A stretch of 26,571 nucleotides of DNA from a virus (taxonomy: Duplodnaviria; Heunggongvirae; Uroviricota; Caudoviricetes), in IMG/VR virus record IMGVR_UViG_2623620496_000002, positions 1-26,571 of that record. One strand, written 5' to 3'. The notes under the pieces were generated by a model, which made no database searches, had not been told where the DNA came from, and worked only from the letters and a program-made list of their open reading frames with translations. The position numbers were made by a program, and so were the translations under genes. Positions 6,673 through 23,495 of this stretch are shown piece after piece (within the stretch, counting starts at the first letter, position 1; each line of letters begins with the position of its first letter).

Positions 6673-7698
6673 TTACGCCAGTTGTACGGACACGAACGCA
6701 TCAGGGTCAGCCAGCAGCATCAGCGGTGCTGACTGAATCATGGTGAACTCACGCGCCGGATCGCCGGTGGTCACCCAGTTTTTCGGGTAGCGGGCAGAGG
6801 CGTTAATGCCTTCGCGCTGTGCGTCCGCATCCTGAATGCAGCCATAGGTGCGCAGACCACGTGCCTGAGTGTTCCCCAGCAACATCGTGTTGTCCGGCAG
6901 GAAGTTCTTTTTGACGTCGTTTTCCACGTACTGTCCGGAATACACGACGATCGCCATATCGCCATACATCCCCTTATAGGACACCGCTTCGCCCAGGTCT
7001 TTTACCGCTGTCTCCAGCTCGGAATGAGAGCCGCGACGGGTATCCAGCTTCTCCTTGACGGCTTTGAAGGAACGGAACAGCGCCCAGCCTTTCGGATCGA
7101 ACACGATGATATTCACCACACCGCTGGCGTTCAGCGCGTAGGCTTCGATATCGTCGGTCGGGTCATACGTGGACTTGTCACGCTTGCTCCACTCCGTGCC
7201 GCCGGACTGCGTGATGTTATTCGCCGCACTGCGGCCCATATCCACCTCAACCGGATCGAAGGCTTCACCGGTCATGGTGTATTTGCCTTTAAGCACGGCA
7301 GAAACGGCCTGCATCTCTTCGACCTGGGCAATGGCCAGCTCTTCGTCACGCATGTTCTGCATAATGATGCGACGGCGACGGTAAGCCGGGTCCGCCAGAT
7401 TCTGCGGATCTTCATCCGGCAGGCGACGCAGGGTCATCTGCGGATTCACTTCATGCTTCGGCTTGACATATCCCGGCGTAAATTCAGAGGTGGAGCCGCC
7501 ACGGGAACGGATAACCTCACCGGAAACAATCGGCGAAACGTACAGCGCCATGTTTACCAGTCCCGGAATTTGTGAGAGATAGACTTTCTCCGTGGTGAAG
7601 GGATAGCTCTCACGGAAAAAGAGACGCAGAAACAGCGGTTCAAACTTAAATTTCTGCTCATTTGCCGCCAGCAGCTGGGCGGTTGTGTACATCGACAT
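6673..7698 (-). CDS. E: major capsid protein gpE
   Basis: ORF 6673..7725 contains MSMYTTAQLLAANEQKFKF... to ...FVSVQLA, near-identical to recalled lambda gpE (341 aa); start placed at ATG 7696..7698. Confidence 0.95.
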   Translation of the reverse strand: MSMYTTAQLLAANEQKFKFEPLFLRLFFRESYPFTTEKVYLSQIPGLVNMALYVSPIVSGEVIRSRGGSTSEFTPGYVKPKHEVNPQMTLRRLPDEDPQNLADPAYRRRRIIMQNMRDEELAIAQVEEMQAVSAVLKGKYTMTGEAFDPVEVDMGRSAANNITQSGGTEWSKRDKSTYDPTDDIEAYALNASGVVNIIVFDPKGWALFRSFKAVKEKLDTRRGSHSELETAVKDLGEAVSYKGMYGDMAIVVYSGQYVENDVKKNFLPDNTMLLGNTQARGLRTYGCIQDADAQREGINASARYPKNWVTTGDPAREFTMIQSAPLMLLADPDAFVSVQLA

Positions 7699-7753
7699 AA
7701 AAAAATCCCGTAAAAAAAGCCGCACAGGCGGCCTTTAGTGATGAAGGGTAAAG

Positions 7754-9415: not shown

Positions 9416-10169
9416 TCTTCTCCTCCTCTGTTGATTGTCGCAGTCCGGATTCAAATGCCGCAGCCGCCCAGGCTGGCGGTTTAAGACCGGCTGCGCGGCG
9501 CTCCATCGTTTCACGGACCTGCTGGGCAAAAATTTCCTGATAGTCGTCACCGCGTTTTGCGCACTCTTTCTCGTAGGTACTCAATCCGGCTTCTATCAGC
9601 ATCACCGCTTCCTGAACTTCTTTCAGACCATCGATGGCCATACGACCGGAGCCTATCCAGTCGCAGTTCCCCCAGGCACTGCGTGCTTCCTGAAAGCTGA
9701 AGCGCGCTTTTGAAGGTAACGTCACCACGCGGCGAACGATGGCCTCTTCCAGCCAGCACAGAAACATCTGGCTCGCCTGACGGGATGCGACGAATTTTCG
9801 CCGCCCCATAAAGTGCGCCCACGACTCGTTCGCGCTGGCCCGTGCCGTGGAGTAGCTCATCTGGGCGTAATTCCGGGAAAGCTGCTCATACGAGACACCC
9901 AGCCCGGCAGCGATATACCGCAGCAGTGACTGCTCAAACACGGAGTAGCCGTTATCCGTGTCCTGAGCCGTCTGCAGGTTCAGTGAGTCACCCGGCATCA
10001 GGTGCGGTACTTTTGCGCCTCCCAGCCGGACCGGCGCTGCGGCGTAATACGCGGCAATTTCACCAATCCAGCCGGTCAGCCTTTCCCGCTGCTCCTGACT
10101 GTTCGCGCCCAGAATAAAATCCATCGCTGACTGCGTATCCAGCTCACTCTCAATGGTGGCGGCATACAT
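9396..10169 (-). CDS. B: portal protein gpB, C-terminal segment (gene split by inserted element)
   Basis: 257 aa ORF MYAATIESELDTQSAMDFILGANSQEQRERLTGWIGEIAAYYAAAP...EEEKSDSRAA corresponds to the C-terminal part of recalled lambda gpB (about residues 277-533); lambda-like sequence stops abruptly at 10175. Confidence 0.9.
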   Translation of the reverse strand: MYAATIESELDTQSAMDFILGANSQEQRERLTGWIGEIAAYYAAAPVRLGGAKVPHLMPGDSLNLQTAQDTDNGYSVFEQSLLRYIAAGLGVSYEQLSRNYAQMSYSTARASANESWAHFMGRRKFVASRQASQMFLCWLEEAIVRRVVTLPSKARFSFQEARSAWGNCDWIGSGRMAIDGLKEVQEAVMLIEAGLSTYEKECAKRGDDYQEIFAQQVRETMERRAAGLKPPAWAAAAFESGLRQSTEEEKSDSRAA

Positions 10170-10175
10170 CGCCTT
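10163..10175. repeat. 13-bp direct repeat at left junction of inserted element (putative att core, CATACATCGCCTT)
   Basis: CATACATCGCCTT at 10163..10175 matches CATAAATCGCCTT at 20562..20574 (12/13), the points where lambda-like B sequence ends and resumes. Confidence 0.7.
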
Positions 10176-10250
10176 TATGAAAAGACAGGAAAAAATAAAA
10201 TTTAAAAACAGTACATTACGAATGCTCAGACCTATCGTTTAAAGGAGTCG

Positions 10251-10271
10251 CAATACACACTGCAATACACG
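10251..10271. repeat. two direct copies of GCAATACAC near the left end of the element (candidate integrase or regulator binding sites)
   Basis: GCAATACAC at 10251..10259 and 10263..10271; the same motif occurs three times at the right end (20386..20438). Confidence 0.5.
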
Positions 10272-10612
10272 ATTATTTATAAGATGAGCGGCATCCGTCA
10301 TAAAGCTGGTGGATGCTTTTTCTATGCATATATGCACAGTTTTAGTGGGCGTTAATGTCGATATAGGGATCCCCATATCGAGATTGGATACCTGGCTTTT
10401 TTCCGGTTAACCTTTAATCAGGCTGGTGGGCTTTACCTGTTTTGTATGAGTGGTCATCATGACCATGTCATAACAAAAACCCCATATTCGTGGTTTTTCT
10501 GTGTCGGGCTATTCTGTCGTTGCTGTGCTGATTTGGCTGGTGGGCTGAATCATCATTACGGCGATGCAGCTATGTAGACGTTCCGGCCTCCTCAAATTGA
10601 GGATTGTGGAAG

Positions 10613-10720
10613 AATCAATGGGTTAGTCTTACTTTCCCGACATCCCCCAATGGGGGTTTTCGAAACAATCAATAGCTTAGGCTTACTTCCCCGATTTCCT
10701 GCATTGCAGGTTTTCGAAAT
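10613..10720 (+). repeat. tandem ~54-bp repeat units, each with a GC hairpin followed by TTTTCGAAA (candidate small RNA or terminator elements)
   Basis: Unit A 10613..10666 and unit B 10667..10720 both start AATCAAT and end GGTTTTCGAAA. Hairpins CCCCCAATGGGGG (10644..10656) and CCTGCATTGCAGG (10699..10711) differ by paired changes that keep the stem. A third partial unit and further hairpins follow at 10721..10828. Confidence 0.6.
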
Positions 10721-10984
10721 AATCAATGGGTTAGGCCATCGTGCAATTTTGCACTTTGCCAGCCAGCGCAATGTCGCGTTATCAGTCCTCAGATGTGAGG
10801 GATGTAGCCAGCTTTTCCCCCAGTGGGGGATATCCAGCACCGACGGCTTAACTGTGCGTGCCAGCACAAGGTAGCCTTGAACTACTTACTGCATCCCATC
10901 TTACAGGCCGTGCCTTCCTGCTTAACTTTTTGCAATGCAACAAGTCAGCCAGCGCAATTTTGCGTTATCGGGAATATCAGCAAG

Positions 10985-11266
10985 TTACCGCCGCAATCGT
11001 TCCGGCTTCTTCCACTGGTAAGTATTTTTCGCGCTCTCCCTCCGTTGTTGAGAACGGCGACGATATGCCAGCAACTCAAGGACTCTTGTTCGTATGTTGC
11101 GCATATCCACGCCGTTAAGCTCAATACCGTCACGGCGCATCACCTCAGCCACTACACGCACATAATTATCTGCGGTCACGCTGTCCGGCTGCGTGGCCTG
11201 TTCGTCATGCTGCTTGCTGATTCCACAAGCACGGCGGATTAATCGCAGTATTTCGGATTCAGTCAT
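10985..11266 (-). CDS. hypothetical protein (93 aa) downstream of satellite small-terminase homolog
   Basis: ORF MTESEILRLIRRACGISKQHDEQ... directly downstream of the TerS-like gene; no recognisable motif; weak RBS. Confidence 0.45.
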   Translation of the reverse strand: MTESEILRLIRRACGISKQHDEQATQPDSVTADNYVRVVAEVMRRDGIELNGVDMRNIRTRVLELLAYRRRSQQRRESAKNTYQWKKPERLRR

Positions 11267-11277
11267 AGCGTACTACG

Positions 11278-11820
11278 TTACTTATCTTTATTCGGCTGCA
11301 ACTTATCCGGTACGTTTCCGGCAGTTTCCATCAGATAATCGGACAGCATCAGCGGTATGTTTTCGTCAAGTTTTGCGCATGCGTTACGGGCTCTGATAAC
11401 TTCTTTTTTCAGTCCATCCAGCATAGACGGCTTCATGTCGGGAAACTTCCTTGTCATGGCAAGCGGCAGGCTGTCCATGATTGAAGAAATCTGACTCGCT
11501 AGTTTTGAAATCGCGTAGATGCAAAACTTTGTATCAATCACCTCGCCGCGTTCGCGCTCGTTTTTAAGTTCCTGCGCTTCCGCCTGGGCCGTCATTAATC
11601 TGATTCTTACGCGTAAAAGTTCATCATCATCAATCTCGCCTTTGTCGTCTGTAATCTGGTTAATTGCATTGCTAACCCGATTGTCTATTACGCTGGCAAC
11701 ATCATAAAACGCCTCGCGGCCTTTACGTTCAACGGGAGTCACTCCCCACTTGTCGAACGCTGTCGCACTTACACGGCAGCTTTGCGCCATGTTTTTTTTG
11801 TTCATCAGGTGCGATTTCAT
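11278..11820 (-). CDS. terminase small subunit homolog (Nu1-like; candidate packaging-redirection protein)
   Basis: C-terminal half aligns with the prophage Nu1 in this same window (LMTAQAEAQELKNERERGEVIDTKFCIYAISKLASQISSIMDSLPLAMTRKFPDM versus LTRAQADAQELKNARDSAEVVETAFCTFVLSRIAGEIASILDGIPLSVQRRFPEL); N-terminal region divergent. Start taken at ATG 11818..11820 (MKSHLMNKK) with GGGG RBS; the track ORF begins at an upstream GTG. Confidence 0.8.
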   Translation of the reverse strand: MKSHLMNKKNMAQSCRVSATAFDKWGVTPVERKGREAFYDVASVIDNRVSNAINQITDDKGEIDDDELLRVRIRLMTAQAEAQELKNERERGEVIDTKFCIYAISKLASQISSIMDSLPLAMTRKFPDMKPSMLDGLKKEVIRARNACAKLDENIPLMLSDYLMETAGNVPDKLQPNKDK

Positions 11821-11932
11821 CAATATCCCCACTTAAGTAATGTTTCAGGTTGGTGTATTGGCTTTATCTTTTCCTTTTTATTCATAGAGATAGAGCGAAC
11901 AACAAAACCACCACCAGCACCCGAAAAAGGCT

Positions 11933-11996
11933 CATAAATAGCGAAAACCCGCGAGGTCGCCGCCCCGTAGCCTACCGGATCGCCGGAAAGGACCCG
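11933..11996. other. satellite cos site (cohesive-end region AGGTCGCCGCCC at 11954..11965)
   Basis: CATAAATAGCGAAAACCCGCG-AGGTCGCCGCCC-CGTAGCCTACCGGATCGCCGGAAAGGACCCG closely matches the prophage cos block at 24198..24261 except inside the 12-nt core; the core is the reverse complement of the recalled lambda cohesive end GGGCGGCGACCT. Lies just upstream of the TerS-like gene, as cos lies upstream of Nu1. Confidence 0.75.
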
Positions 11997-12021
11997 CCAG
12001 CCAGAACGGGCCCTAATTTCA

Positions 12022-12405
12022 TCAACCAATCAACTTATAGCGACCATCCCGTGCATTGCGACGTACACGCTCAATCTTGAGGCATAGCGCCGCATCTGGC
12101 TTTTTTGGGACAGGTACGCGGCAATATTCAGAAGATCGAGGAATATTGTTTATCCAGTCGATCACTTCACTTAAATACCAGGCCTTACGCCCTTCCGTAA
12201 CCTGTACGCGTTCGGGGAACTCTCCGCGAGCCTCAAGGTTTAGCAATGTGCGACGGCTAAGGGTAGTAAGTTCCATCACCTGATTCATATCAACAAGGCG
12301 TTCACTTAAACGCATTTTGTCAGCAATAGCCTTTAATTCCTCTACTGCTGGATCCGGATACATCATTTCGGCAATTGGCTTAAGGTCATTGTAATGATTC
12401 TGCAT
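12022..12405 (-). CDS. putative AlpA/MerR-like helix-turn-helix DNA-binding protein
   Basis: Segment MELTTLSRRTLLNLEARGEFPERVQVTEGRKAWYLSEVIDWI resembles AlpA-family HTH; start placed at ATG 12403..12405 (MQNHYNDL) preceded by AAAGGGGGA RBS; the track ORF starts at an upstream TTG. Confidence 0.6.
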   Translation of the reverse strand: MQNHYNDLKPIAEMMYPDPAVEELKAIADKMRLSERLVDMNQVMELTTLSRRTLLNLEARGEFPERVQVTEGRKAWYLSEVIDWINNIPRSSEYCRVPVPKKPDAALCLKIERVRRNARDGRYKLIG

Positions 12406-12416
12406 TGTATCCCCCT

Positions 12417-12758
12417 TTACACACAAGCCAGCGGCTGAACAGAAATACCTGAGCCAACAAACGCGGCAACCTTTGCCGACAGTTCTTTTACAGACTCAGG
12501 CCAGTTCAGAGCATCAACATTTAAAACACCTGTCTTATAAACCTGTGCCTGTGTTTTTTTCGCTGTGTCGATTTGTACAGCGGAAACATAAACCGCTTTA
12601 CCTACGCTCGAACCATCCCATACCACCAGTGCACCTGTTGCATCTTCCTGCATCAGTGGCGTAAATGCAGGAATTACCCCTTTATTAGCTGAAAATATCC
12701 CCAGCGTAGTCACCAGTGCTTCAGTGCCAGCCATGAGTTCAGTGTAATGAGTAGCCAT
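12417..12758 (-). CDS. head decoration protein homolog (gpD-like) encoded by the satellite
   Basis: 113 aa; central region GALVVWDGSSVGKAVYVSAVQID...VYKTGVLNVDALNWPE parallels prophage gp[24 protein letters not shown]...[16 protein letters not shown]; strong RBS GGGGGAG before the ATG. Confidence 0.75.
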   Translation of the reverse strand: MATHYTELMAGTEALVTTLGIFSANKGVIPAFTPLMQEDATGALVVWDGSSVGKAVYVSAVQIDTAKKTQAQVYKTGVLNVDALNWPESVKELSAKVAAFVGSGISVQPLACV

Positions 12759-12767
12759 TGCTCCCCC

Positions 12768-13808
12768 TTAGCCAATGCGAACGGTAACAAAACGATTGAT
12801 GCGGGCCGGTATTGGCTGTGGTGCTGAATGTGTCTGCACATATTCAATAGCCGGATCACCAGGCACAATATAGTTTTTCGGTGCAAGTTCGGCTTTAGTC
12901 AGCCCCATTCGGATTAGCTCCGGATCCTGAATACCGCCATAGGCGACAATCCCCTGAAGAGCCGTATTGCCAAGCACCATCAAATCAGGATCAAGGAAAT
13001 GTTTTTCTGTTCCGTCCTCGTCGGTATAACGCCCGCTGTAAACAACAATCGCAACATCGCCCATATACCCTTTAAAACTCACCGAATCACCAAGGTCTTT
13101 AAGGGCCGTTTCCAGTTCGGAATTAGAACCACGACGGGTATCCAAAGCCTCTTTTATCGCTCTGAATGAACGGTATTTCTTCCATACATTACCACCCATA
13201 ATGATGATATTAGTGACGCCCTCACTAAATTCTGCGTAGCTCTCAATATCATCATTTGGATCAAAAGTTTCTTTATCCTTACCTGACCACTCAGTACCGC
13301 CAGACTGAGTGATGATATTTTGTGGTTTTATATTCCAGTCCAGCTCATAACGTTCAATACCATCGCCCTCAATGATATTTTTCCCCGTTGTGATTGCCTG
13401 AACAGCAAGCCATTCAATACGTGCACGAATAGCTTTAGCCTGATTTACAATCGCCTGTTTAACTTTAATATTACGCGCCCCAAAAGCATTGTATTGCTCA
13501 GGTGACACACCAGCAGGGCGCACAGCTAACTTATTTGGATCAATGCTGCTTTTCGGCTTCATATAACCTGGACGAATTGTTTTTGATTCGTATCCCTCAT
13601 CTCGTGAAACTTTACTGCCCACCATAGGAGAGCAAAACGCCGCGATCGGGATATTTGGATCGTCGATCGTATCAAGAATAATGTCTCTCGATTCAAACAT
13701 TACCGAGCGAGTGAAAAACAAACTGGTAAACAACGCATTTAATTTTTTTTGCACATCTTCAGCATTAGCCACCTGCACAAGCTGTGTAGGCGAATATAAA
13801 TCAACCAT
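12768..13808 (-). CDS. major capsid protein homolog (gpE-like) encoded by the satellite
   Basis: Aligns along its length with the prophage gpE in this window (for example QSGGTEWSGKDKETFDPNDDIESYA versus QSGGTEWSKRDKSTYDPTDDIEAYA; RSFRAIKEALDTRRGSNSELETALKDLG versus RSFKAVKEKLDTRRGSHSELETAVKDLG). Start placed at ATG 13806..13808 (MVDLYSPTQLVQVA, aligning to gpE MSMYTTAQLLAANE) with AAAGAGGA RBS; the upstream extension in the ORF track is rejected. Confidence 0.85.
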   Translation of the reverse strand: MVDLYSPTQLVQVANAEDVQKKLNALFTSLFFTRSVMFESRDIILDTIDDPNIPIAAFCSPMVGSKVSRDEGYESKTIRPGYMKPKSSIDPNKLAVRPAGVSPEQYNAFGARNIKVKQAIVNQAKAIRARIEWLAVQAITTGKNIIEGDGIERYELDWNIKPQNIITQSGGTEWSGKDKETFDPNDDIESYAEFSEGVTNIIIMGGNVWKKYRSFRAIKEALDTRRGSNSELETALKDLGDSVSFKGYMGDVAIVVYSGRYTDEDGTEKHFLDPDLMVLGNTALQGIVAYGGIQDPELIRMGLTKAELAPKNYIVPGDPAIEYVQTHSAPQPIPARINRFVTVRIG

Positions 13809-13982
13809 ACGCATCCTCTTTGCATTCATTAAAAATAATTGTGGATATATGCTATCACCGATATTTGTCATGCGAATACATGCAACCGAGTGCAATGTTG
13901 TATAAAGTTTTGGGATAACAACTTCAGCGCGGATAATTAGTGTTAATATCTTCACTCCCTTTGGTCGGGATTTATGTAGCAT

Positions 13983-14014
13983 GCCGGAAAATTTATTTTT
14001 TTCCGGCCTTTTTT
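13983..14014 (+). terminator. rho-independent terminator-like hairpin between ssb and capsid-homolog genes
   Basis: GCCGGAAAA-TTTATTT-TTTTCCGGC (9-bp stem, 13983..14007) followed by CTTTTTT on the plus strand and flanked by an A-run on the other side; may act bidirectionally. Confidence 0.45.
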
Positions 14015-14025
14015 ATTGGCAATAT

Positions 14026-14475
14026 TTAAAACGGAATATCATCTCCCCATTGCTCATTTTCTCCCACTGGTGGATGGCTTCCTTGCTGATCTGCCTGTTG
14101 TTTTGCTCTGTTCAGTGCGTCAGTAGCCTGACCCTGTTGACCTTTTTTGCCGCCCGGTCGCACCGTTCGCGCACTGATTACGCTGTCTGCGATAACCTGC
14201 CAGCCCTGCCGCGTTTCACCGTTCTGGCCTGTCCACTGTCTTACCTGCATGTTACCCGCCACGCTCACCAGTTCGCCTTTGTGGTGTTTTGCCAGTGCGT
14301 CGGCCTGTCTGCCAAACGCCAGGACGGATAACCACATCGTCGCCGTTCCGTCATCTGCCTGGCTGCACGGAAGGGGGACCGCCATACTAGCCATCGTCAT
14401 TTGTGTACCCTTGCTGGTGGTCTTTAACTGCGGGTCAGCCACCAGCCGCCCGTAAGCCGCTATCTGTGCTGTCAT
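14026..14475 (-). CDS. ssb: single-stranded DNA-binding protein
   Basis: 149 aa, glycine/glutamine-rich linker and acidic C-terminal tail ending DDIPF, the characteristic SSB tip. Confidence 0.85.
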   Translation of the reverse strand: MTAQIAAYGRLVADPQLKTTSKGTQMTMASMAVPLPCSQADDGTATMWLSVLAFGRQADALAKHHKGELVSVAGNMQVRQWTGQNGETRQGWQVIADSVISARTVRPGGKKGQQGQATDALNRAKQQADQQGSHPPVGENEQWGDDIPF

Positions 14476-14723
14476 GCTGTCTGCTCTCCAGTTTTAACGT
14501 TGATGGTTGTCACCTGTTCCGCTTCGGCAATCTCCCGTTCTGTCAGCGTGGCAAAGTTTGCCGCCGTCGTGGTCATGAATGCGCTTATCAGTTCGGGGTG
14601 TGCTTTCGCGTATCCTTCCCCAGCGTGGCGGTCTATCGTTCTGATTGCCACCTTTAAGGCGTGCTCTGTCATGTCTAACGCTTTATATTTTGGCGCTGTC
14701 TTATCTCTGGTTTTTCTGGTCAT
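14472..14723 (-). CDS. hypothetical protein (83 aa)
   Basis: ORF between the iteron cluster and ssb; stop overlaps the ssb start; no recognisable motif. Confidence 0.5.
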   Translation of the reverse strand: MTRKTRDKTAPKYKALDMTEHALKVAIRTIDRHAGEGYAKAHPELISAFMTTTAANFATLTEREIAEAEQVTTINVKTGEQTA

Positions 14724-14732
14724 TCCTCACTG

Positions 14733-14926
14733 CTCCCCACTTTTACTACCCACTTTTTGAAATTACCCAACGTCTCCCCACTTCTTTTTTTTGTGATTCT
14801 AACGTGATGTTTTTCAATGTGTTTTTTATTCCCCACTTTTTGGGGTATATACAGGTGGGAAAGTGGGGAATCACGTTTCAATTTTGTTAAATTCCCCACA
14901 CTCCCCACTTTTACTACCCACTTTTT
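14733..14926. repeat. iteron cluster, putative satellite replication origin
   Basis: Perfect 26-bp direct repeat CTCCCCACTTTTACTACCCACTTTTT at 14733..14758 and 14901..14926, plus additional CCCCAC(T)TTT copies (14774, 14831, 14893) and an inverted copy AAGTGGGG (14861..14868), immediately downstream of the replicase gene. Confidence 0.65.
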
Positions 14927-16340
14927 ACAGTGGGCGCACGTCATCACCGTCAATAGCAATAACGCCATCACCTTCCAGCTTGTACAGCCAGCGCCGGAAG
15001 TGTTTCATCTCATACCCCAGCTTTTTCATATCATCGCGCAACAACGGAATAGTGCATTTATCTCCGCGCTGTGTGCGTGAACGGATACAGCCCCATAGCG
15101 CGGCATGATTCTCCGTCTTGTTCCCGGCTTCCTCGATGCGCTCCAGTTCAACGGGTGGGCGCGGCTTATCCACAACAACCAGCGACGTGATTAACTCCCC
15201 GTCAGTGTCGGTAAAAAGCTCCACCACACGTAAATCGTATGCGGCCTCTTTCAGTTCCTCCGCGTCCTTCATTTTTGTGCAGGAGATAACCAGGGCTTCA
15301 CTGTCTGCACCTTCACGGCGAATACGGTATTCAGCGTCCAGAGATGCACGAAATGCACTGGAACCACGCGCCCCCTTTGTTTCATCCTTGCCGGAATGGT
15401 GAACCACCAGCACCGTGGCCCCTGTGCGGCGTTTCAGTTCGTCACATCCACGGATAAACGCCCCCATATCCCGCGCGTCATTTTCATCATTACCGCCAAA
15501 GCAACGCGCCAGCGTATCAAGAATAATCATGCGTACCGGTTTACCCGTTTCCCGTTCAACCTGGCGGGAAGCGATGACCATTTCATCAACATCAAGCGGG
15601 ACTGCCGGAAAAATCGGGCGGTTTACCAGGTACAGATTTTCCACCCGTTCATCATTAACGATTTCCCATGCCTTGATACGGCGGGGGACACCAATGCCAC
15701 CTTCACCGACAACATACATCACCGAACCATGCGCCACCCTGCGGCCTCCCCAGTGACGGCCAGTGGCAACATGACACGCCCAGGAACACGCGAGGAACGA
15801 TTTATAGGAACCGCTCGCGCCGTATGTGCTGCACAATGAATTAGCCGGAATCACGCCCTTAACGACATAATCAAGCTGTGTGTCGTACCCTGCAGATCCA
15901 ATGCTCATTGGTAGCGTGGTTTTTCGCTGGCTGTATTGCTCGTCAGTAAGTATTTCCCCGCGCTCTGCCTGTTCGCGGATCCGTTGCAGGTAGTCGTGCC
16001 AGTTCTCCAGCTTCTGGCTGTGCATTCCATCAGGGTAATAATTCGCATCCCGTACACCTGCCGCCGCCAGCTTTTGCCCGATAGCATTAATATTTGACGG
16101 CTTGATGTGGCCTGCCTTGTACAGCCGGACACAATAGCGACCATCGTCGATAATTTTCAGGTCTGCCAGTTCGTCAAGCTGGCTGTCTCCCAGCCATACA
16201 GGCGGGACGTTATCACCAGCAAGTCGCCCGTCCTGTTCCTGCCACTGTTTCGCGTGCGCCCAGGCATCACTACCCGCAAAAATAATGACTTCGGTCATTT
16301 TGTCGTGTGGCTGTTTTTTTAAGTTCGGTGCCAGTTTCAT
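14925..16340 (-). CDS. replication initiation protein (primase/helicase-like, RecA-like ATPase domain)
   Basis: 471 aa; Walker A-like YGASGSYKSF and Walker B-like RMIILDTLARCF, then VLVVHHSGKDETKGARGSSAF typical of RepA/DnaB-like ATPases; start overlaps upstream ORF stop (ATGA). Confidence 0.8.
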   Translation of the reverse strand: MKLAPNLKKQPHDKMTEVIIFAGSDAWAHAKQWQEQDGRLAGDNVPPVWLGDSQLDELADLKIIDDGRYCVRLYKAGHIKPSNINAIGQKLAAAGVRDANYYPDGMHSQKLENWHDYLQRIREQAERGEILTDEQYSQRKTTLPMSIGSAGYDTQLDYVVKGVIPANSLCSTYGASGSYKSFLACSWACHVATGRHWGGRRVAHGSVMYVVGEGGIGVPRRIKAWEIVNDERVENLYLVNRPIFPAVPLDVDEMVIASRQVERETGKPVRMIILDTLARCFGGNDENDARDMGAFIRGCDELKRRTGATVLVVHHSGKDETKGARGSSAFRASLDAEYRIRREGADSEALVISCTKMKDAEELKEAAYDLRVVELFTDTDGELITSLVVVDKPRPPVELERIEEAGNKTENHAALWGCIRSRTQRGDKCTIPLLRDDMKKLGYEMKHFRRWLYKLEGDGVIAIDGDDVRPL

Positions 16341-16636
16341 TTTTTGCCCCTGAATGCGTTAATCATGTTTTTCATTTTCTGAATATTTGCCCGTGCCTTT
16401 GCGTTGCTGGTGGGCTGTTTGCGTGGTGTGGCCTGTATCAGTGAAAAATCACGCCGGAACTGATAAGCAGGCATCACGCAGTCATAGCCGTACCCATCAC
16501 GGCGGTAAGTAACGCACCGCCCCGCCACGCTTTTAATCGTTACCGTGCCACCGTAGTTATCCCGGAAAATATCGCCGGGGCGGATTTCAGGCCGAGGGAG
16601 ACCACTGGCAGTAAAGCCAGAATTTTTCTGTTTCAT
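16337..16636 (-). CDS. hypothetical protein (99 aa)
   Basis: ORF whose stop overlaps the replicase start, suggesting translational coupling; no recognisable motif. Confidence 0.55.
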   Translation of the reverse strand: MKQKNSGFTASGLPRPEIRPGDIFRDNYGGTVTIKSVAGRCVTYRRDGYGYDCVMPAYQFRRDFSLIQATPRKQPTSNAKARANIQKMKNMINAFRGKK

Positions 16637-16642
16637 GTTTTT

Positions 16643-16861
16643 TTACTCCAGAGGCAGATTTTTAGCGGCGAGTTCAATATCAGATGTCAGAGAAACCTGT
16701 GTATTTGCCAGGTCTAACAACAAAGAAATAAGAATTTCCTCTCTGCTATCGGATTCATCGGTGCTAAGGCTGTTCATCCACATATTGACGACTTCCCTGA
16801 TTTTTTTCGCAGAGTGCAGGGCTTCAAATGCCAGGTCTTCAATATCATGTTTATTTCGCAT
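16643..16861 (-). CDS. hypothetical protein (start uncertain)
   Basis: Track ORF 16643..16927; internal ATG at 16859..16861 (MRNKHDIE) chosen to limit overlap with the upstream gene. Confidence 0.4.
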   Translation of the reverse strand: MRNKHDIEDLAFEALHSAKKIREVVNMWMNSLSTDESDSREEILISLLLDLANTQVSLTSDIELAAKNLPLE

Positions 16862-17063
16862 AATCGCCCCCGCGTAACTGGTCTGCACTAACACCCGATT
16901 TAGTGAGCATTTCAGAAAATCCCGCAAGAGTGCTGATAAATTCGTTTTCCATTAAACGGCACTGGCATTTAACCCGGCCTTTTTCCAGATACACCAGTAC
17001 GCGCCACGTATAATCTGACGGCACATTCAGCACTACAGATAAGTGCGCTTCATTATTATTCAT
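16851..17063 (-). CDS. hypothetical protein (70 aa)
   Basis: Compact ORF in the small-gene cluster between the regulatory region and the replicase. Confidence 0.45.
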   Translation of the reverse strand: MNNNEAHLSVVLNVPSDYTWRVLVYLEKGRVKCQCRLMENEFISTLAGFSEMLTKSGVSADQLRGGDYAK

Positions 17064-17292
17064 GGCTCACCACCTCCATATCAGCCATGATAATTTTGCT
17101 GGCCTCATTCAGTGCCATATCAGCACTAAGTTGCATTACAGCCAGTGAATGAGGAACGAAAGCCCCGGCATATTCTGTTTCACTGGTAGCGTGCTTATGC
17201 GCCCTGTCCGCGATAACAGAAATATCAATCAGCGCATCAATCAGTGTTTTGATTGCTTCGGCGGCTGCGTCCGGACGGGTGTTATTGCACAT
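17056..17292 (-). CDS. hypothetical protein (78 aa)
   Basis: Compact ORF overlapping neighbours by a few nt, same orientation as the cluster. Confidence 0.45.
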   Translation of the reverse strand: MCNNTRPDAAAEAIKTLIDALIDISVIADRAHKHATSETEYAGAFVPHSLAVMQLSADMALNEASKIIMADMEVVSHE

Positions 17293-17488
17293 GGTGCACC
17301 CCCTGACGAATACGGGCGGCGAATACCATCACGCAGCCAGCCGGTGATTGCTGACGGGCTTCCTGTTCGCTGGTGGCCTCAATGGTAATCACGCGCGGTT
17401 GTGCCGTACTCAGGGCGATAAAACGCCAGATGTATTTATTCAGGTTGTGCGAGCCCCGCCCTTGCGGGTGTGTGGTATGATTTCTCAT
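17282..17488 (-). CDS. hypothetical small protein (68 aa), possibly Icd-like
   Basis: C-terminal 68 codons of track ORF 17282..18274, starting ATG 17486..17488 (MRNHTTHPQGRG...); first gene downstream of the divergent operator region. The Icd-like label is a weak recollection, not verified. Confidence 0.4.
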   Translation of the reverse strand: MRNHTTHPQGRGSHNLNKYIWRFIALSTAQPRVITIEATSEQEARQQSPAGCVMVFAARIRQGVHHVQ

Positions 17489-17585
17489 AGCTACCTCGAT
17501 ACTGTTGCTATCGTTGGTGGTTAGAAGCCCGGTTAGTGTTAGCGCACTGCCGGGTTTCGTCGTTTCTGCACCTTGCACCAACAAG

Positions 17586-17637
17586 GTGTTGAACACCAAT
17601 TTAAACCCAGGTGTTGAACACGTCAAGTGTTGAACAC
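17586..17637. promoter_or_regulatory. three copies of palindromic operator GTGTTGAACAC in a divergent promoter region
   Basis: GTGTTGAACAC at 17586..17596, 17611..17621 and 17627..17637, between the minus-strand start at 17488 and the plus-strand start at 17688. Confidence 0.6.
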
Positions 17638-17687
17638 TTGTTTTTTTTCCTGCATACTGCATTTGTTTTTTGTGAGGGGTACACAAC

Positions 17688-17867
17688 ATGGCGACAAAAG
17701 CAGTAAACGCAAAATCACAAACAGTTGCGGCAAGGGTTCCGCATGAAGTTATGAACAATGTTGAGGCGGTAAAAATGCCTGGTGAAAGTACAGGGCAGTT
17801 TGTAACAGCAGCATTAAAGCGAGAAGTTGAATACCGCCAGCGACGCAAGGCTAAAGAGCAAGAATAA
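17688..17867 (+). CDS. putative ribbon-helix-helix type small DNA-binding regulator (59 aa)
   Basis: ATG 17688 preceded by GAGGGG RBS; translation MATKAVNAKSQTVAARVPHEVMNNVEAVKMPGESTGQFVTAALKREVEYRQRRKAKEQE; below the 60-aa cutoff of the ORF track; directly downstream of the operator repeats. Confidence 0.55.
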   Translation: MATKAVNAKSQTVAARVPHEVMNNVEAVKMPGESTGQFVTAALKREVEYRQRRKAKEQE

Positions 17868-17924
17868 TCACTATCAGCGCTGTGGTGTGAGGTACTCCGG
17901 CGCATTGCTTTACAGGTCGGCACT

Positions 17925-18134
17925 ATGAGCAAAAAATACCTATCCACTGAAGAGATTTTCGCAGAACAACGAAGATTGCTTTTACAGAGCATTGTTGCAC
18001 GCCAGAAAGAAAAGGCACACGCTAAACAAATGCCACCAAATACAGAACCAGCGCCTACAAAATTTGCGCTTGATGAGTTTCTCAATAAACAGCCCCGGGT
18101 AATGAAAGCTAACAGGAACCGCCCACCAGGCTGA
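17925..18134 (+). CDS. hypothetical protein (69 aa), second gene of plus-strand regulatory operon
   Basis: ORF MSKKYLSTEEIFAEQRRLLLQSIVARQKEKAH... between the RHH gene and the plus-strand terminator. Confidence 0.5.
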   Translation: MSKKYLSTEEIFAEQRRLLLQSIVARQKEKAHAKQMPPNTEPAPTKFALDEFLNKQPRVMKANRNRPPG

Positions 18135-18200
18135 TCACATTGCCCACCAGCCGCAAATGTGGCATTGTTGGTGATGCTTTTGTTTTCCCTTGTTCCCACT

Positions 18201-18229
18201 GGCGACCCTTTTGCGGTCGCCTTTGTTTT
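18201..18229 (+). terminator. rho-independent terminator
   Basis: GGCGACC-CTTTTGC-GGTCGCC stem-loop (18201..18221) followed by TTTGTTTTG. Confidence 0.6.
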
Positions 18230-18230
18230 G

Positions 18231-18809
18231 TCACTGAATGCGGTTACCAAAGTAAAACTCAGGCTGATATTCACGTATCAGCGTTTTTTCTTCTTCCTCC
18301 AGCTCACGCTTTTTGCGCTTACATGCCTGTAGCTCCCTCCCCTTCTCGCTGGCACTTATTTGATATTGCTCTTTACGGCGGGAAAAATCCTGTAATGCAC
18401 CCCACGGGATACCATAAGCCCCCGTTTTTCTGATACCCGGTATCACATTTCTGAATACCCAGTTACTGAAACGATGAGCAAATGTGCCAGGCGTCGTTGC
18501 TTTGCGGCTGCGGGCTATTAGTTTGTAGAAACCTGACTCAGAGATAATTCTCATATTCTGATTTCCTCCTGGGGTGTAAGTTAAATTTACTCCCTTTTCA
18601 TCATCATCAAGCATCTGCAACGCCGTACGCGAATTGGTTAGTTCCAGCACAGCACAAACATCTTTTGCAACAAACCACGGATCGCCGTTCAGATACACCA
18701 CACGAACGTTCACACTATCAAAGCGCAGAACGACGAGATCACGAATATCGCAGAATTTTTTCACTGGACGAGCGTACCCCTTGCCCGTCACGGCAATATT
18801 TTTATTCAT
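18231..18809 (-). CDS. Bro-N domain protein (phage antirepressor-like)
   Basis: N-terminal VRVVYLNGDPWFVAKDVCAVLELTNSRTALQMLDDDEKG matches the Bro-N motif; C-terminal part charged and coiled-coil-like. Confidence 0.75.
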   Translation of the reverse strand: MNKNIAVTGKGYARPVKKFCDIRDLVVLRFDSVNVRVVYLNGDPWFVAKDVCAVLELTNSRTALQMLDDDEKGVNLTYTPGGNQNMRIISESGFYKLIARSRKATTPGTFAHRFSNWVFRNVIPGIRKTGAYGIPWGALQDFSRRKEQYQISASEKGRELQACKRKKRELEEEEKTLIREYQPEFYFGNRIQ

Positions 18810-18865
18810 CGCGTTTTTACCTTATAGACAAAAAACCCCTCGTGATGAGGGGCATTATTTACTGG

Positions 18866-19123
18866 TTATTGCTGTTTTGTTTTTCCAGGTTTCCATCCAG
18901 GATGCCACTCACCACGGATCCATGCCTGAACCTCTGAAAGTCGATACCCTGCAGCACGTTCACCGATCTTGATACGTCGCGGGAATTTACCTGCCTGCTC
19001 CATTTTCCAGCGTGTTGAGTTTGCCAGCGTGGTAAGTGCTATGCACTCTTTTTCACGAATGAACCGATCAATGTCCTTCATTGTGCGCAAATCGTTTTCA
19101 TCAACAAGAGAATAAATTGCCAT
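18866..19123 (-). CDS. alpA: AlpA-family transcriptional regulator / excisionase-like protein
   Basis: 85 aa, HTH segment with WKMEQAGKFPRRIKIGERAAGYRLSEVQAWI typical of AlpA; immediately downstream of the integrase gene. Confidence 0.85.
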   Translation of the reverse strand: MAIYSLVDENDLRTMKDIDRFIREKECIALTTLANSTRWKMEQAGKFPRRIKIGERAAGYRLSEVQAWIRGEWHPGWKPGKTKQQ

Positions 19124-19124
19124 A

Positions 19125-20366
19125 TCACACCACCTCTTTATTAAGCTCGATAACGTTGTTGTTAAATCCTGCTATCGTATTAAGGTAATTAACCCATATA
19201 TTAAGCACCTCAAGTTTTTTCTTTATATGCCTGCTTTTATTGTAAACACCAGCAACCCCTTTCACTTTATGACCTAAAAGAAGTTCGACAATATAAGGAT
19301 CCGCCCCCATATCATTAAGCGTAGTGGAAAATGTGCGCCTGAAATCATGTATGCACCACAAGCCATTAGTATCATGACCAAGACGCCTGCATATTCTGTT
19401 TGCAGCCCCTGTTATTGTCGCCCTTTGCAAAGCACAACCGACAACATAACCGCGATTTTTTGTTTCTGCGTAAAGATTAACGATCCATTGTTTTATTCCG
19501 TCAGGAACAGGCCTTACTATAGCCTCCTTGTTTTTGCTGTGCTCTTTTGGGACTGTCCATACCCAGTTTTTTAAATCCCATTCGTCCCAGGTGGATAGCC
19601 TCGCCTCCTGCTGTCGGCAACCAAACACCAGGCAGATAACCATTATTCTTCGGTTATATATTGATGACAGAGTTAGCAAATTATTACCGTAAGCATAAGA
19701 CCATACATCAGCGGTTTCATTGATATTAAGAACGCGATCCCTTATACCGGATGAGCGCCCGACATAACTTACGTTAATATCTCCAAAGGGATCGCACGCG
19801 ATGTATTGCCTGACGCGACAAAAACGCAACGCCTGTTTGATATCAAGAAAAATTGCACCAGACATAACAGGCGCATTTTTTTTGATCCTGTCAAAGACGG
19901 TAAGCCATGTGTGTAATTTGCACTGTTCTATAGCCATATCACCGATATAGGGGAAGATATGCTTTTCAAATCGTTTTATTAAATATTCATGCTCTTTTCT
20001 GGCTGTTGTGGCGTGATTGTCGTACCAGTAAAACAGCGCATCCCTTACGGTCACTGGTTGCATAGTTTTTTCGGCAGCAAGTTTTATTTGCCTGCGGGGG
20101 TCCAGATTTTCAGCCAGCCATTCACGGCACTGATCACGCATGCGCCTGGCCGTTGCAAGAGACATGTCAGGATAGCGACCAAGTGTAAGCCATACCGGAG
20201 GGGATTCCCTGCCACCAAGACGATAGTAAAAAACAAAGCTGATCCCCCCAACCATGCTTACACGCACAGACAACCCGCGCCCATCCGCTATTGTTTTTTG
20301 TTTGTCCTGCCGTTTTCCGACAAGACTCTTTAACAGTTTGTCACTGAGTTTGTTTTCAATAGCCAT
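19125..20366 (-). CDS. int: tyrosine-type site-specific integrase (P4-like)
   Basis: 413 aa; N-terminal arm-binding-like region, C-terminal catalytic residues HDFRRTF...LLGHKVKGVAGVYNKS with the conserved tyrosine. Confidence 0.95.
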   Translation of the reverse strand: MAIENKLSDKLLKSLVGKRQDKQKTIADGRGLSVRVSMVGGISFVFYYRLGGRESPPVWLTLGRYPDMSLATARRMRDQCREWLAENLDPRRQIKLAAEKTMQPVTVRDALFYWYDNHATTARKEHEYLIKRFEKHIFPYIGDMAIEQCKLHTWLTVFDRIKKNAPVMSGAIFLDIKQALRFCRVRQYIACDPFGDINVSYVGRSSGIRDRVLNINETADVWSYAYGNNLLTLSSIYNRRIMVICLVFGCRQQEARLSTWDEWDLKNWVWTVPKEHSKNKEAIVRPVPDGIKQWIVNLYAETKNRGYVVGCALQRATITGAANRICRRLGHDTNGLWCIHDFRRTFSTTLNDMGADPYIVELLLGHKVKGVAGVYNKSRHIKKKLEVLNIWVNYLNTIAGFNNNVIELNKEVV

Positions 20367-20385
20367 TAAAAGCCCTCAAGAGATT

Positions 20386-20438
20386 TGCAATACACACCCA
20401 TCCCGATCGCCAATTTGCAATACACATTGCAATACACA
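20386..20438. repeat. three direct copies of TGCAATACACA upstream of int (candidate arm-type or regulatory sites)
   Basis: TGCAATACACA at 20386..20396, 20416..20426 and 20428..20438; same core as the left-end copies at 10251..10271. Confidence 0.55.
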
Positions 20439-20514
20439 AAACCGCGAAAAACTGGAAGGGTGATGAACGGTCATCAAAAGCATGGAAAACGACATTCCAG
20501 ACGCAGCAAGGGTT

Positions 20515-23495
<2,981 letters not shown>

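Follow-up and report, generated by a model that had tools for sequence, protein, structure and literature searches.

What kind of element is formed by the tandem repeats of about 54 bp that lie near one end of a phage satellite in the IMG/VR virus record IMGVR_UViG_2623620496_000002, and do these repeats act as RNA or as DNA? The whole stretch analyzed, called the window below (26,571 nucleotides), is a 26.5-kb lambdoid prophage lying on the minus strand, with tail genes, head genes and terminase, and its portal gene is split by an insert of about 10.4 kb (roughly 10170-20560). This insert is a PICI-type phage satellite of E. coli (PICI, phage-inducible chromosomal island). The repeats form an array in an 815-bp non-coding stretch that runs from the gene of a conserved 93-aa protein to the left junction, that is, at the distal end of the satellite between its last late gene and the attachment (att) junction, and the array is oriented opposite to the satellite genes. 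An initial annotation of this DNA had rightly placed the repeats near the left end of the satellite and had read them as small RNAs, tandem terminators or an RNA-based immunity system of the P4 type. We find that each repeat unit joins a perfect palindrome to a perfect consensus site for integration host factor (IHF) and closely resembles a site inside the roi regulator genes of lambdoid phages. On balance, we think it probable that the units are composite modules, each a Roi-type operator plus an IHF site, acting as DNA and not as RNA genes.

Architecture and conservation of the array

The tandem repeat is real and has one more copy than had been recognized. Tandem Repeats Finder reports it at 10613-10736 (period 54, 2.3 copies, 80% matches), and a repeat search resolves three in-register 54-bp copies at 10583-10636, 10637-10690 and 10691-10744, the first of which, with palindrome CCTCAAATTGAGG, had been overlooked. 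In every unit a flank CCG-N3-T precedes a perfect palindrome of 13 bp, which a spacer of 10 nt separates from a perfect match to the IHF consensus WATCAANNNNTTR. The units and the related motifs that follow them are:

10583..10636, plus strand: unit 1, with palindrome CCTCAAATTGAGG at 10590-10602, spacer ATTGTGGAAG and IHF consensus AATCAATGGGTTA at 10613-10625
10637..10690, plus strand: unit 2, with palindrome CCCCCAATGGGGG at 10644-10656, spacer TTTTCGAAAC and IHF consensus AATCAATAGCTTA at 10667-10679
10691..10744, plus strand: unit 3, with palindrome CCTGCATTGCAGG at 10698-10710, spacer TTTTCGAAAT and IHF consensus AATCAATGGGTTA at 10721-10733
10741..10754: palindrome GTGCAATTTTGCAC, even-centered and lacking an IHF box at the usual distance
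10760..10783, plus strand: degenerate motif copy CAGCCAGCGCAATnTnGCGTTATC, with an imperfect palindrome and without an intact IHF box
10817..10829: lone palindrome CCCCCAGTGGGGG, with arms as in unit 2 and no IHF box
10946..10987, plus strand: even-centered module, with GCGCAATTTTGCG at 10952-10964, spacer TTATCGGGAA and IHF-like box TATCAGCAAGTTA at 10975-10987

The IHF-like box TATCAGCAAGTTA of the last module has one mismatch to the consensus and runs into the 93-aa gene at its stop codon; the equivalent place in other satellites has an intact TATCAAC..GTTA box. The palindrome at 10741..10754 had been recorded correctly, and the further hairpin that had been put at 10816..10828 exists one position to the right. 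The run TTTT, said to follow each hairpin, does follow those of units 2 and 3 but not that of unit 1. Inspection of the sequence also bears out that two of the hairpins differ at arm positions 3 and 4, with the opposite arm changed to match.

Both parts of the unit stand out from their surroundings. The 26.5-kb window holds four perfect matches to the IHF consensus, three of them in units 1-3. Perfect palindromes of the form 6+(1-2)+6 number five between 10583 and 10830, against 0.13 expected, and none of 5000 simulations reached five. When the paired changes were followed across homologous modules (17 distinct instances from satellites and phages), 98% of cells were found to pair and five of six pairs had changed on both sides; none of 500 shuffles equaled this and slid controls gave 30-49%, the satellite instances having been chosen as palindromes and the phage alleles not so chosen. 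The paired changes had been taken as a sign of selection on structure, and as regards selection on symmetry this holds up; the part of that claim that concerned RNA is not supported, as described below. The 54-bp period is close to five helical turns, so that successive sites would lie on the same face of the helix.

The same architecture recurs in related satellites, for which we collected 80 loci by using the 93-aa protein as an anchor and added three PICIs integrated at ordinary chromosomal att sites. The number of modules in related PICIs ranges from 0 to 4; they lie at the equivalent place and on the strand opposite to the satellite genes, and they take the form of a palindrome, 9-10 nt and WATCA(A/G)NNNNTTA. 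Across 47 unique arrays, 106 IHF-like boxes lie on the array strand and 17 on the other strand, compared with 10 in 193 kb of adjacent coding DNA, and the counts in a second satellite sample were 63 on the array strand versus 2 on the other. Anchoring on perfect palindromes places an IHF box 9-10 nt downstream in 12 of 29 contexts and the mirror geometry in 0 of 29.

The repertoire of modules turns over around this fixed plan. It is reshuffled among otherwise similar satellites, with units deleted or fused in 54-bp steps; palindromes are recombined with different spacers, and new satellite palindromes appear (CAGCCGTTGGCTG, TTCGCCGCTGGCGAA, GCGCATTTTTGCGC and ACCCATTTTTGGGT). Among modules with one class of palindrome, drift is seen in the spacer and at the NNNN positions, whereas arms and IHF core are constant. 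One satellite lineage (L086/L105) carries a decayed unit 1 in which palindrome and IHF box are both mutated. The 301-bp array region is matched in 723 of 5,426 complete E. coli genomes, and strain CFSAN064035 (NZ_CP031134.1) has an identical copy of the 1.1-kb array stretch in the same setting.

Counterparts of the units inside phage roi genes

All three units match a site within phage regulator genes. Unit 1 is 96% identical to nt ~122-171 of phage roi/antirepressor genes of class D' (JLK-2012 type; the match in JLK-2012 roi itself is at nt 122-171), unit 2 is 90.6% identical to a segment of about 50 bp in KilAC antirepressor genes (class C), and unit 3 is about 90% identical to the roi class B site. 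Roi proteins have a weak Rha-type helix-turn-helix (HTH) domain at the N-terminus and a KilAC/ANT domain at the C-terminus, and those of HK022 and JLK-2012 are almost identical outside residues ~18-63. We surveyed 138 roi loci from IMG/VR for the classes of this variable cassette, which codes for the HTH region of Roi and contains the matching site. With the exception of class E, every class carries a palindrome of its own at one common position, with the IHF consensus 10 nt further on:

Class D / D': HTH motif KRHDNVKRTIE, palindrome CCTCAAATTGAGG, corresponding to satellite unit 1
Class C: HTH motif SRHDKVKQSIE, palindrome CCCCCAATGGTGG (imperfect), corresponding to satellite unit 2
Class B: HTH motif SRPDNVKISIE, palindrome CCTGCATTGCAGG, corresponding to satellite unit 3
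Class A (HK022): HTH motif SRHSNVKVSID, palindrome CCTGCATTGCAGC, with a core common to unit 3
Class E: HTH motif SQHGNVRISIE, no palindrome, no IHF box and no corresponding satellite unit

The HTH motif NVK(I/V)SI(E/D) goes with the palindrome CCTGCATTGCAG(G/C), in classes A and B. Class E alleles (about 24 contigs with ...SQHGNVRISIERLAKRGVIQLPSMQKVENKQ..., among them L169, L176, L207, L209 and L220) have neither the palindrome nor the IHF consensus, which means that the two features come and go together in the phage genes. The HK022 roi gene has CCTGCATTGCAG, 10 nt and then AATCAATGATTTA at a position equivalent to that of the satellite module, and the IHF box beside this palindrome is the sole perfect IHF consensus in 8 kb. 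Across the roi classes the IHF-box codons ATC, AAT and TTA show no synonymous variation while the next codon, for Gly, is GGT, GGA, GGG or GGC, arguing for a constraint at the DNA level inside roi. The class C palindrome is perfect in satellite unit 2 (CCCCCAATGGGGG) and imperfect in the phage coding copy (CCCCCAATGGTGG). Phages with the unit-1-type roi site also carry the satellite's cos type, which makes helpers that encode roi plausible. The sample of module types and the sample of roi classes have three genomes in common.

The Roi protein of HK022 reportedly binds inside its own gene beside an IHF site, with IHF stabilizing the binding (Clerget and Boccard 1996, J Bacteriol), and we take the palindrome and IHF box of HK022 roi to be the obvious candidate for this site. 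The satellite modules resemble it in the palindrome core CTGCATTGCAG, in the 10-nt spacing to a perfect WATCAANNNNTTR and in a common flank, and other roi allele classes are the counterparts of units 1 and 2. They differ from it in being non-coding, in forming a tandem array of three specificities in a satellite that has no roi gene, and in having perfect palindromes where the coding copies are constrained.

Readings of the array

An IHF consensus 10 nt to one side of a palindrome, together with homology to the roi site, indicates protein-binding DNA, and the modules were most likely copied from, or are common to, the inside of lambdoid phage roi regulator genes. That Roi and IHF bind the modules, and what this does for the satellite, are predictions from these comparisons. 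In the satellite, operators belonging to three classes of Roi specificity (D', C and B) would stand in a row, all facing one way. When a Roi-making lambdoid phage is active in the cell, Roi dimers and IHF would bind together at whichever units match and bend the DNA there into a compact nucleoprotein complex at the edge of the element. Such a complex might sense the phage regulator or titrate it, might block transcription at the satellite boundary, or might do both, and there is a hint in the array that the satellite may bind regulators from several phage types. We offer more tentatively the generalization that Gram-negative PICIs keep a distal repertoire of roi-derived operator plus IHF modules as regulator traps for the Roi proteins of several phages; Roi of helper or competitor phages would then be recognized, titrated or used as a switch for the satellite, and the set of units would change, by gain, loss and reshuffling, along with the phages present locally.

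Several points weigh against Roi-type operators. No promoter or regulated gene was identified beside the array. The association of HTH motif and palindrome comes from about five allele classes in which the two features lie within 60 bp, so that linkage alone could yield the correlation. The host prophage of CFSAN064035 has no roi gene in its nin region, and no Rha/Roi N-domain is encoded in the window, satellite included, or in the early region of the CFSAN064035 prophage; a Roi ligand would therefore have to come from another phage. In the collections searched, no phage gene has a counterpart of the palindromes CAGCCGTTGGCTG and TTCGCCGCTGGCGAA or of the even-centered types. None of the 41 distinct satellite modules interrupts the roi reading frame, which fits a recent origin from coding DNA.

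Among the alternatives, the one that survives best, although we regard it as unlikely, is that the same IHF and dyad architecture is bound by a host or satellite protein other than Roi, the similarity to roi reflecting shared ancestry only. The array would then organize the satellite's own DNA transactions, for example by insulating its end from outside transcription or by helping packaging or recombination. This would suit an array whose position and strand are conserved in PICIs regardless of integration site, which always adjoins the 93-aa protein and overlaps that gene's stop codon with its last module, and beside which Chi sites and plus-strand terminator-like hairpins cluster. It would also suit the many palindromes that have no phage counterpart and the resident prophage, without roi, of the strain with the identical copy. 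However, the 3 to 6 different palindromes of a single satellite exceed the number of specificities for which its few DNA-binding genes could account; nothing that the satellite encodes is similar to the Rha-type HTH; the 93-aa protein gives a low-confidence helical model with no match to a DNA-binding fold; and the identity of 90-96% to three separate roi alleles suggests that sequence was exchanged recently rather than inherited from an ancient common source.

A function at the RNA level is improbable. It could take the form of minus-strand read-through from terS and the 93-aa gene that is antisense to roi mRNA, or of weak tandem terminators or small RNAs on the plus strand. The units do lie in the roi sense on the plus strand, read-through on the minus strand would yield about 50 nt of RNA antisense to roi, at 90-96% identity to three allele classes, the minus strand has no strong terminator from the 93-aa gene to the array, and a hairpin followed by TTTT is found on the plus strand in units 2 and 3. 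Against this, Rfam covariance models run over the whole window, those of the C4 and isrK families included, gave no match at the gathering threshold, and the sole match at E ≤ 10 within 10100-11100 was to STnc310 (E = 5.2), with nothing relevant. An immunity RNA of the P4 type (C4, isrK or CI-seqA), as raised in the initial annotation, was rejected on this result. The predicted folding z-scores of the array are alike on the two strands (-4.7 and -5.0), which points to dyad symmetry of the DNA and not to a strand-specific RNA, and the hairpins are weak as RNA (a 5-bp stem plus a triloop, -5 to -9 kcal/mol); the small-RNA proposal does not stand up to these results. The proposal of tandem Rho-independent terminators fares no better, given that a terminator scan calls none at the units, whose stems are of 5 bp, and that the T-run is missing in unit 1 and in many homologous modules. 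As for antisense, the chimeric modules (a CCCCC palindrome with the ATTGTGGAA spacer) and the satellite-only palindromes match no known roi contiguously and still retain the palindrome-plus-IHF geometry, and an antisense role gives no reason for a perfected palindrome or for an IHF core that is kept while the NNNN positions drift.

A protein-coding tandem repeat of 18 residues, or a roi pseudogene, was considered and rejected: there are no family matches, the upstream roi sequence is absent and a TAG stands at 10575. The two open reading frames across the array (10592..10867, minus strand, and 10650..10874, plus strand) have no Pfam or PHROG match, no RefSeq annotation and no coding signature, in line with the earlier statement that no credible open reading frame covers the region. 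Differences within module classes fall on codon positions 1, 2 and 3 in the numbers 286, 533 and 309, with the peak at position 2, and 77 synonymous versus 331 non-synonymous changes likewise give no coding signature.

Least probable of the alternatives is non-functional debris, in which roi fragments from phage recombination were amplified by unequal crossing-over and palindromes and IHF boxes were simply inherited: the roi frame open in every distinct module, the 90-96% identity to phage alleles, the gain and loss of whole 54-bp units and the decayed unit 1 of L086/L105 would fit, but the array holds only the site segment of roi (about 50 bp) and never the flanking roi sequence, its palindromes are either perfect or better than that of the phage copy, IHF boxes are enriched at least 50-fold and lie nearly all on one strand, position and orientation are conserved in divergent PICIs at different att sites, and variation spares the palindrome arms and the IHF core.

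The satellite around the array and related systems

Read along the minus strand, the satellite encodes an integrase, a small HTH protein, a Bro-N protein and an Icd-like protein, then a RepA-type helicase/primase and a single-stranded DNA-binding protein (SSB), then lambda E-like capsid and D-like decoration proteins and an AlpA-like protein, and last TerS and the conserved 93-aa protein. Features of the satellite outside the array are:

10249-10272 and 20386-20438: TGCAATACACA repeats, near both satellite junctions
10305-10312, 10422-10429 and 10536-10543, plus strand: three Chi sites (GCTGGTGG) on the att side of the array, belonging to its context and not evidently to the modules
10985..11266, minus strand: gene of the conserved 93-aa satellite protein (phrog_1561), with no function assigned, always adjoining the array
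11932..11996, minus strand: satellite cosQ-cosN, directly upstream of terS, with cohesive end GGGCGGCGACCT at 11965-11954, the exact lambda end
14900-14925: two tandem copies of the 13-mer ACTACCCACTTTT, directly behind the RepA-type helicase gene's stop codon

The 93-aa protein has 977 homologues at E ≤ 0.001, and the 120 matches listed are 82-99% identical and named 'hypothetical' or 'prophage protein'. Its AlphaFold2 model has three helices and a basic C-terminus at low confidence (predicted local distance difference test score, pLDDT, 67). The protein has no sequence match in the PDB, its model has no fold match, DNA-binding folds included, and a search of genome contigs with the protein gave no match. 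The satellite TerS (11278-11820, minus strand) matches Pfam Phage_Nu1 at profile positions 80-162 only, which is the C-terminal half that contacts TerL, and it has no match in the PDB. The N-terminal DNA-binding part is different, which suggests that a satellite-specific cosB is read by a hybrid small terminase.

The satellite cosQ-cosN was located by blastn of the cos region of the resident prophage against the satellite. The two are 86% identical over 65 bp and the prophage cohesive end differs (GGGCGGAAGGCG); lambda genome records start at the base of the cohesive end GGGCGGCGACCT. A Chi site at 11918-11911 lies within the short satellite cosB region. The Chi trio to the left of the array is oriented for RecBCD entering from the terS-side cos end, and the satellite has 10 Chi sites in 10.4 kb versus 2 in the remaining 16.2 kb of the window. 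The layout of Chi sites plus array is also found in an O157 PICI (L166). Other structures of the distal end are a terminator-like plus-strand hairpin at 10290-10317 with a Chi site in its loop and a 16+16 inverted repeat at 10354-10385 followed by CTGGCTTTTTTCCGG, both of them recurrent, as well as a palindrome at 10452-10464 (GGTCATCATGACC), without an IHF box, that recurs in related satellites.

With these features placed, further identities for the array were set aside. It is not a lambda-type cos/cosB site, as cosQ-cosN is found at the position given above instead. The TGCAATACACA repeats are probably the integrase arm-type sites of attP and fill that role, and the array lies more than 400 bp from the junction. 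A replication origin would have iterons flanking an AT-rich stretch, and origins of Gram-negative PICIs are located immediately 3' of rep (PMC6092414); the 13-mers at 14900-14925 are likely the ori iterons, and the array is 4 kb from the rep-adjacent position where the origin is expected.

Two side observations concern the prophage and the satellite at large. In the helper prophage of CFSAN064035 (L001, NZ_CP031134.1, locus 11195-13499) the major capsid gene is also interrupted, by IS621, and the capsid open reading frame of the window (6673..7725) is intact, so that the window stems from a different strain. A match to the SymR antitoxin RNA at 17489-17561 on the plus strand (32.9 bits, E 0.0015) is below the Rfam gathering score of 61; it falls in the divergent region from the Icd-like to the ylcI-like gene, a possible place for an immunity-type RNA of the satellite.

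Helper-embedded PICIs organized into Integration, Bro, Replication and Late zones were described in 2023 by Tommasini, Mageeney and Williams (PMC10111431). The present satellite is like them in these zones and in lying within a lambdoid late gene (portal) and running in that gene's direction; a distal palindrome/IHF array has no mention in that paper. Some Gram-negative PICIs are reported to have RNA immunity of the P4 type (CI RNA/seqA; Rfam C4, isrK) in their Bro zones (PMC10111431). The array shares with it the setting in phage satellites, the short hairpins and the fact of being embedded in or derived from a gene of the Bro network. It differs in having no covariance-model match, in lying at the distal end rather than in the Bro zone, in a structure signal that is strand-symmetric and in the IHF box that is integral to each unit.

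Lambda cosB, in which TerS R sites surround the IHF site I1, is similar to the array in combining repeated sites for an HTH protein with an IHF site near terS. Unlike cosB, the array is 1.2 kb from the satellite cosQ-cosN, lies downstream of terS and has the opposite orientation, and the R sites of lambda are non-palindromic. In the BIME/RIB-RIP elements of E. coli, REP palindromes flank an IHF site at the 3' ends of operons. The likeness is that palindromes recur together with IHF sites behind the final gene of a transcription unit, whereas the array has no similarity to the REP consensus, its palindromes, of 13-14 bp, are diversified in sequence, and the element as a whole is homologous to part of a phage gene. 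Agreement with the REP consensus extends over only 7-8 nt, which is chance level, and an identity as a REP/BIME or RIB-RIP element was rejected.

A literature search found no paper describing a tandem, multi-specificity, non-coding array at the distal end of a PICI. The intragenic Roi/IHF site, as reported, and the helper-embedded class of PICIs are known already; the distal non-coding array of several specificities appears to be new. If the reading as Roi-type operators is right, satellite and phage would meet at a defined and testable molecular contact, an array that reproduces, in at least three specificities, the site at which a phage regulator controls its own gene; the Roi/Rha proteins, which are poorly understood, and the distal end of PICIs, which is unannotated, would both acquire a function. 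Even without Roi as the ligand, the conserved, strand-biased palindrome/IHF architecture is a previously undescribed cis element of PICIs.

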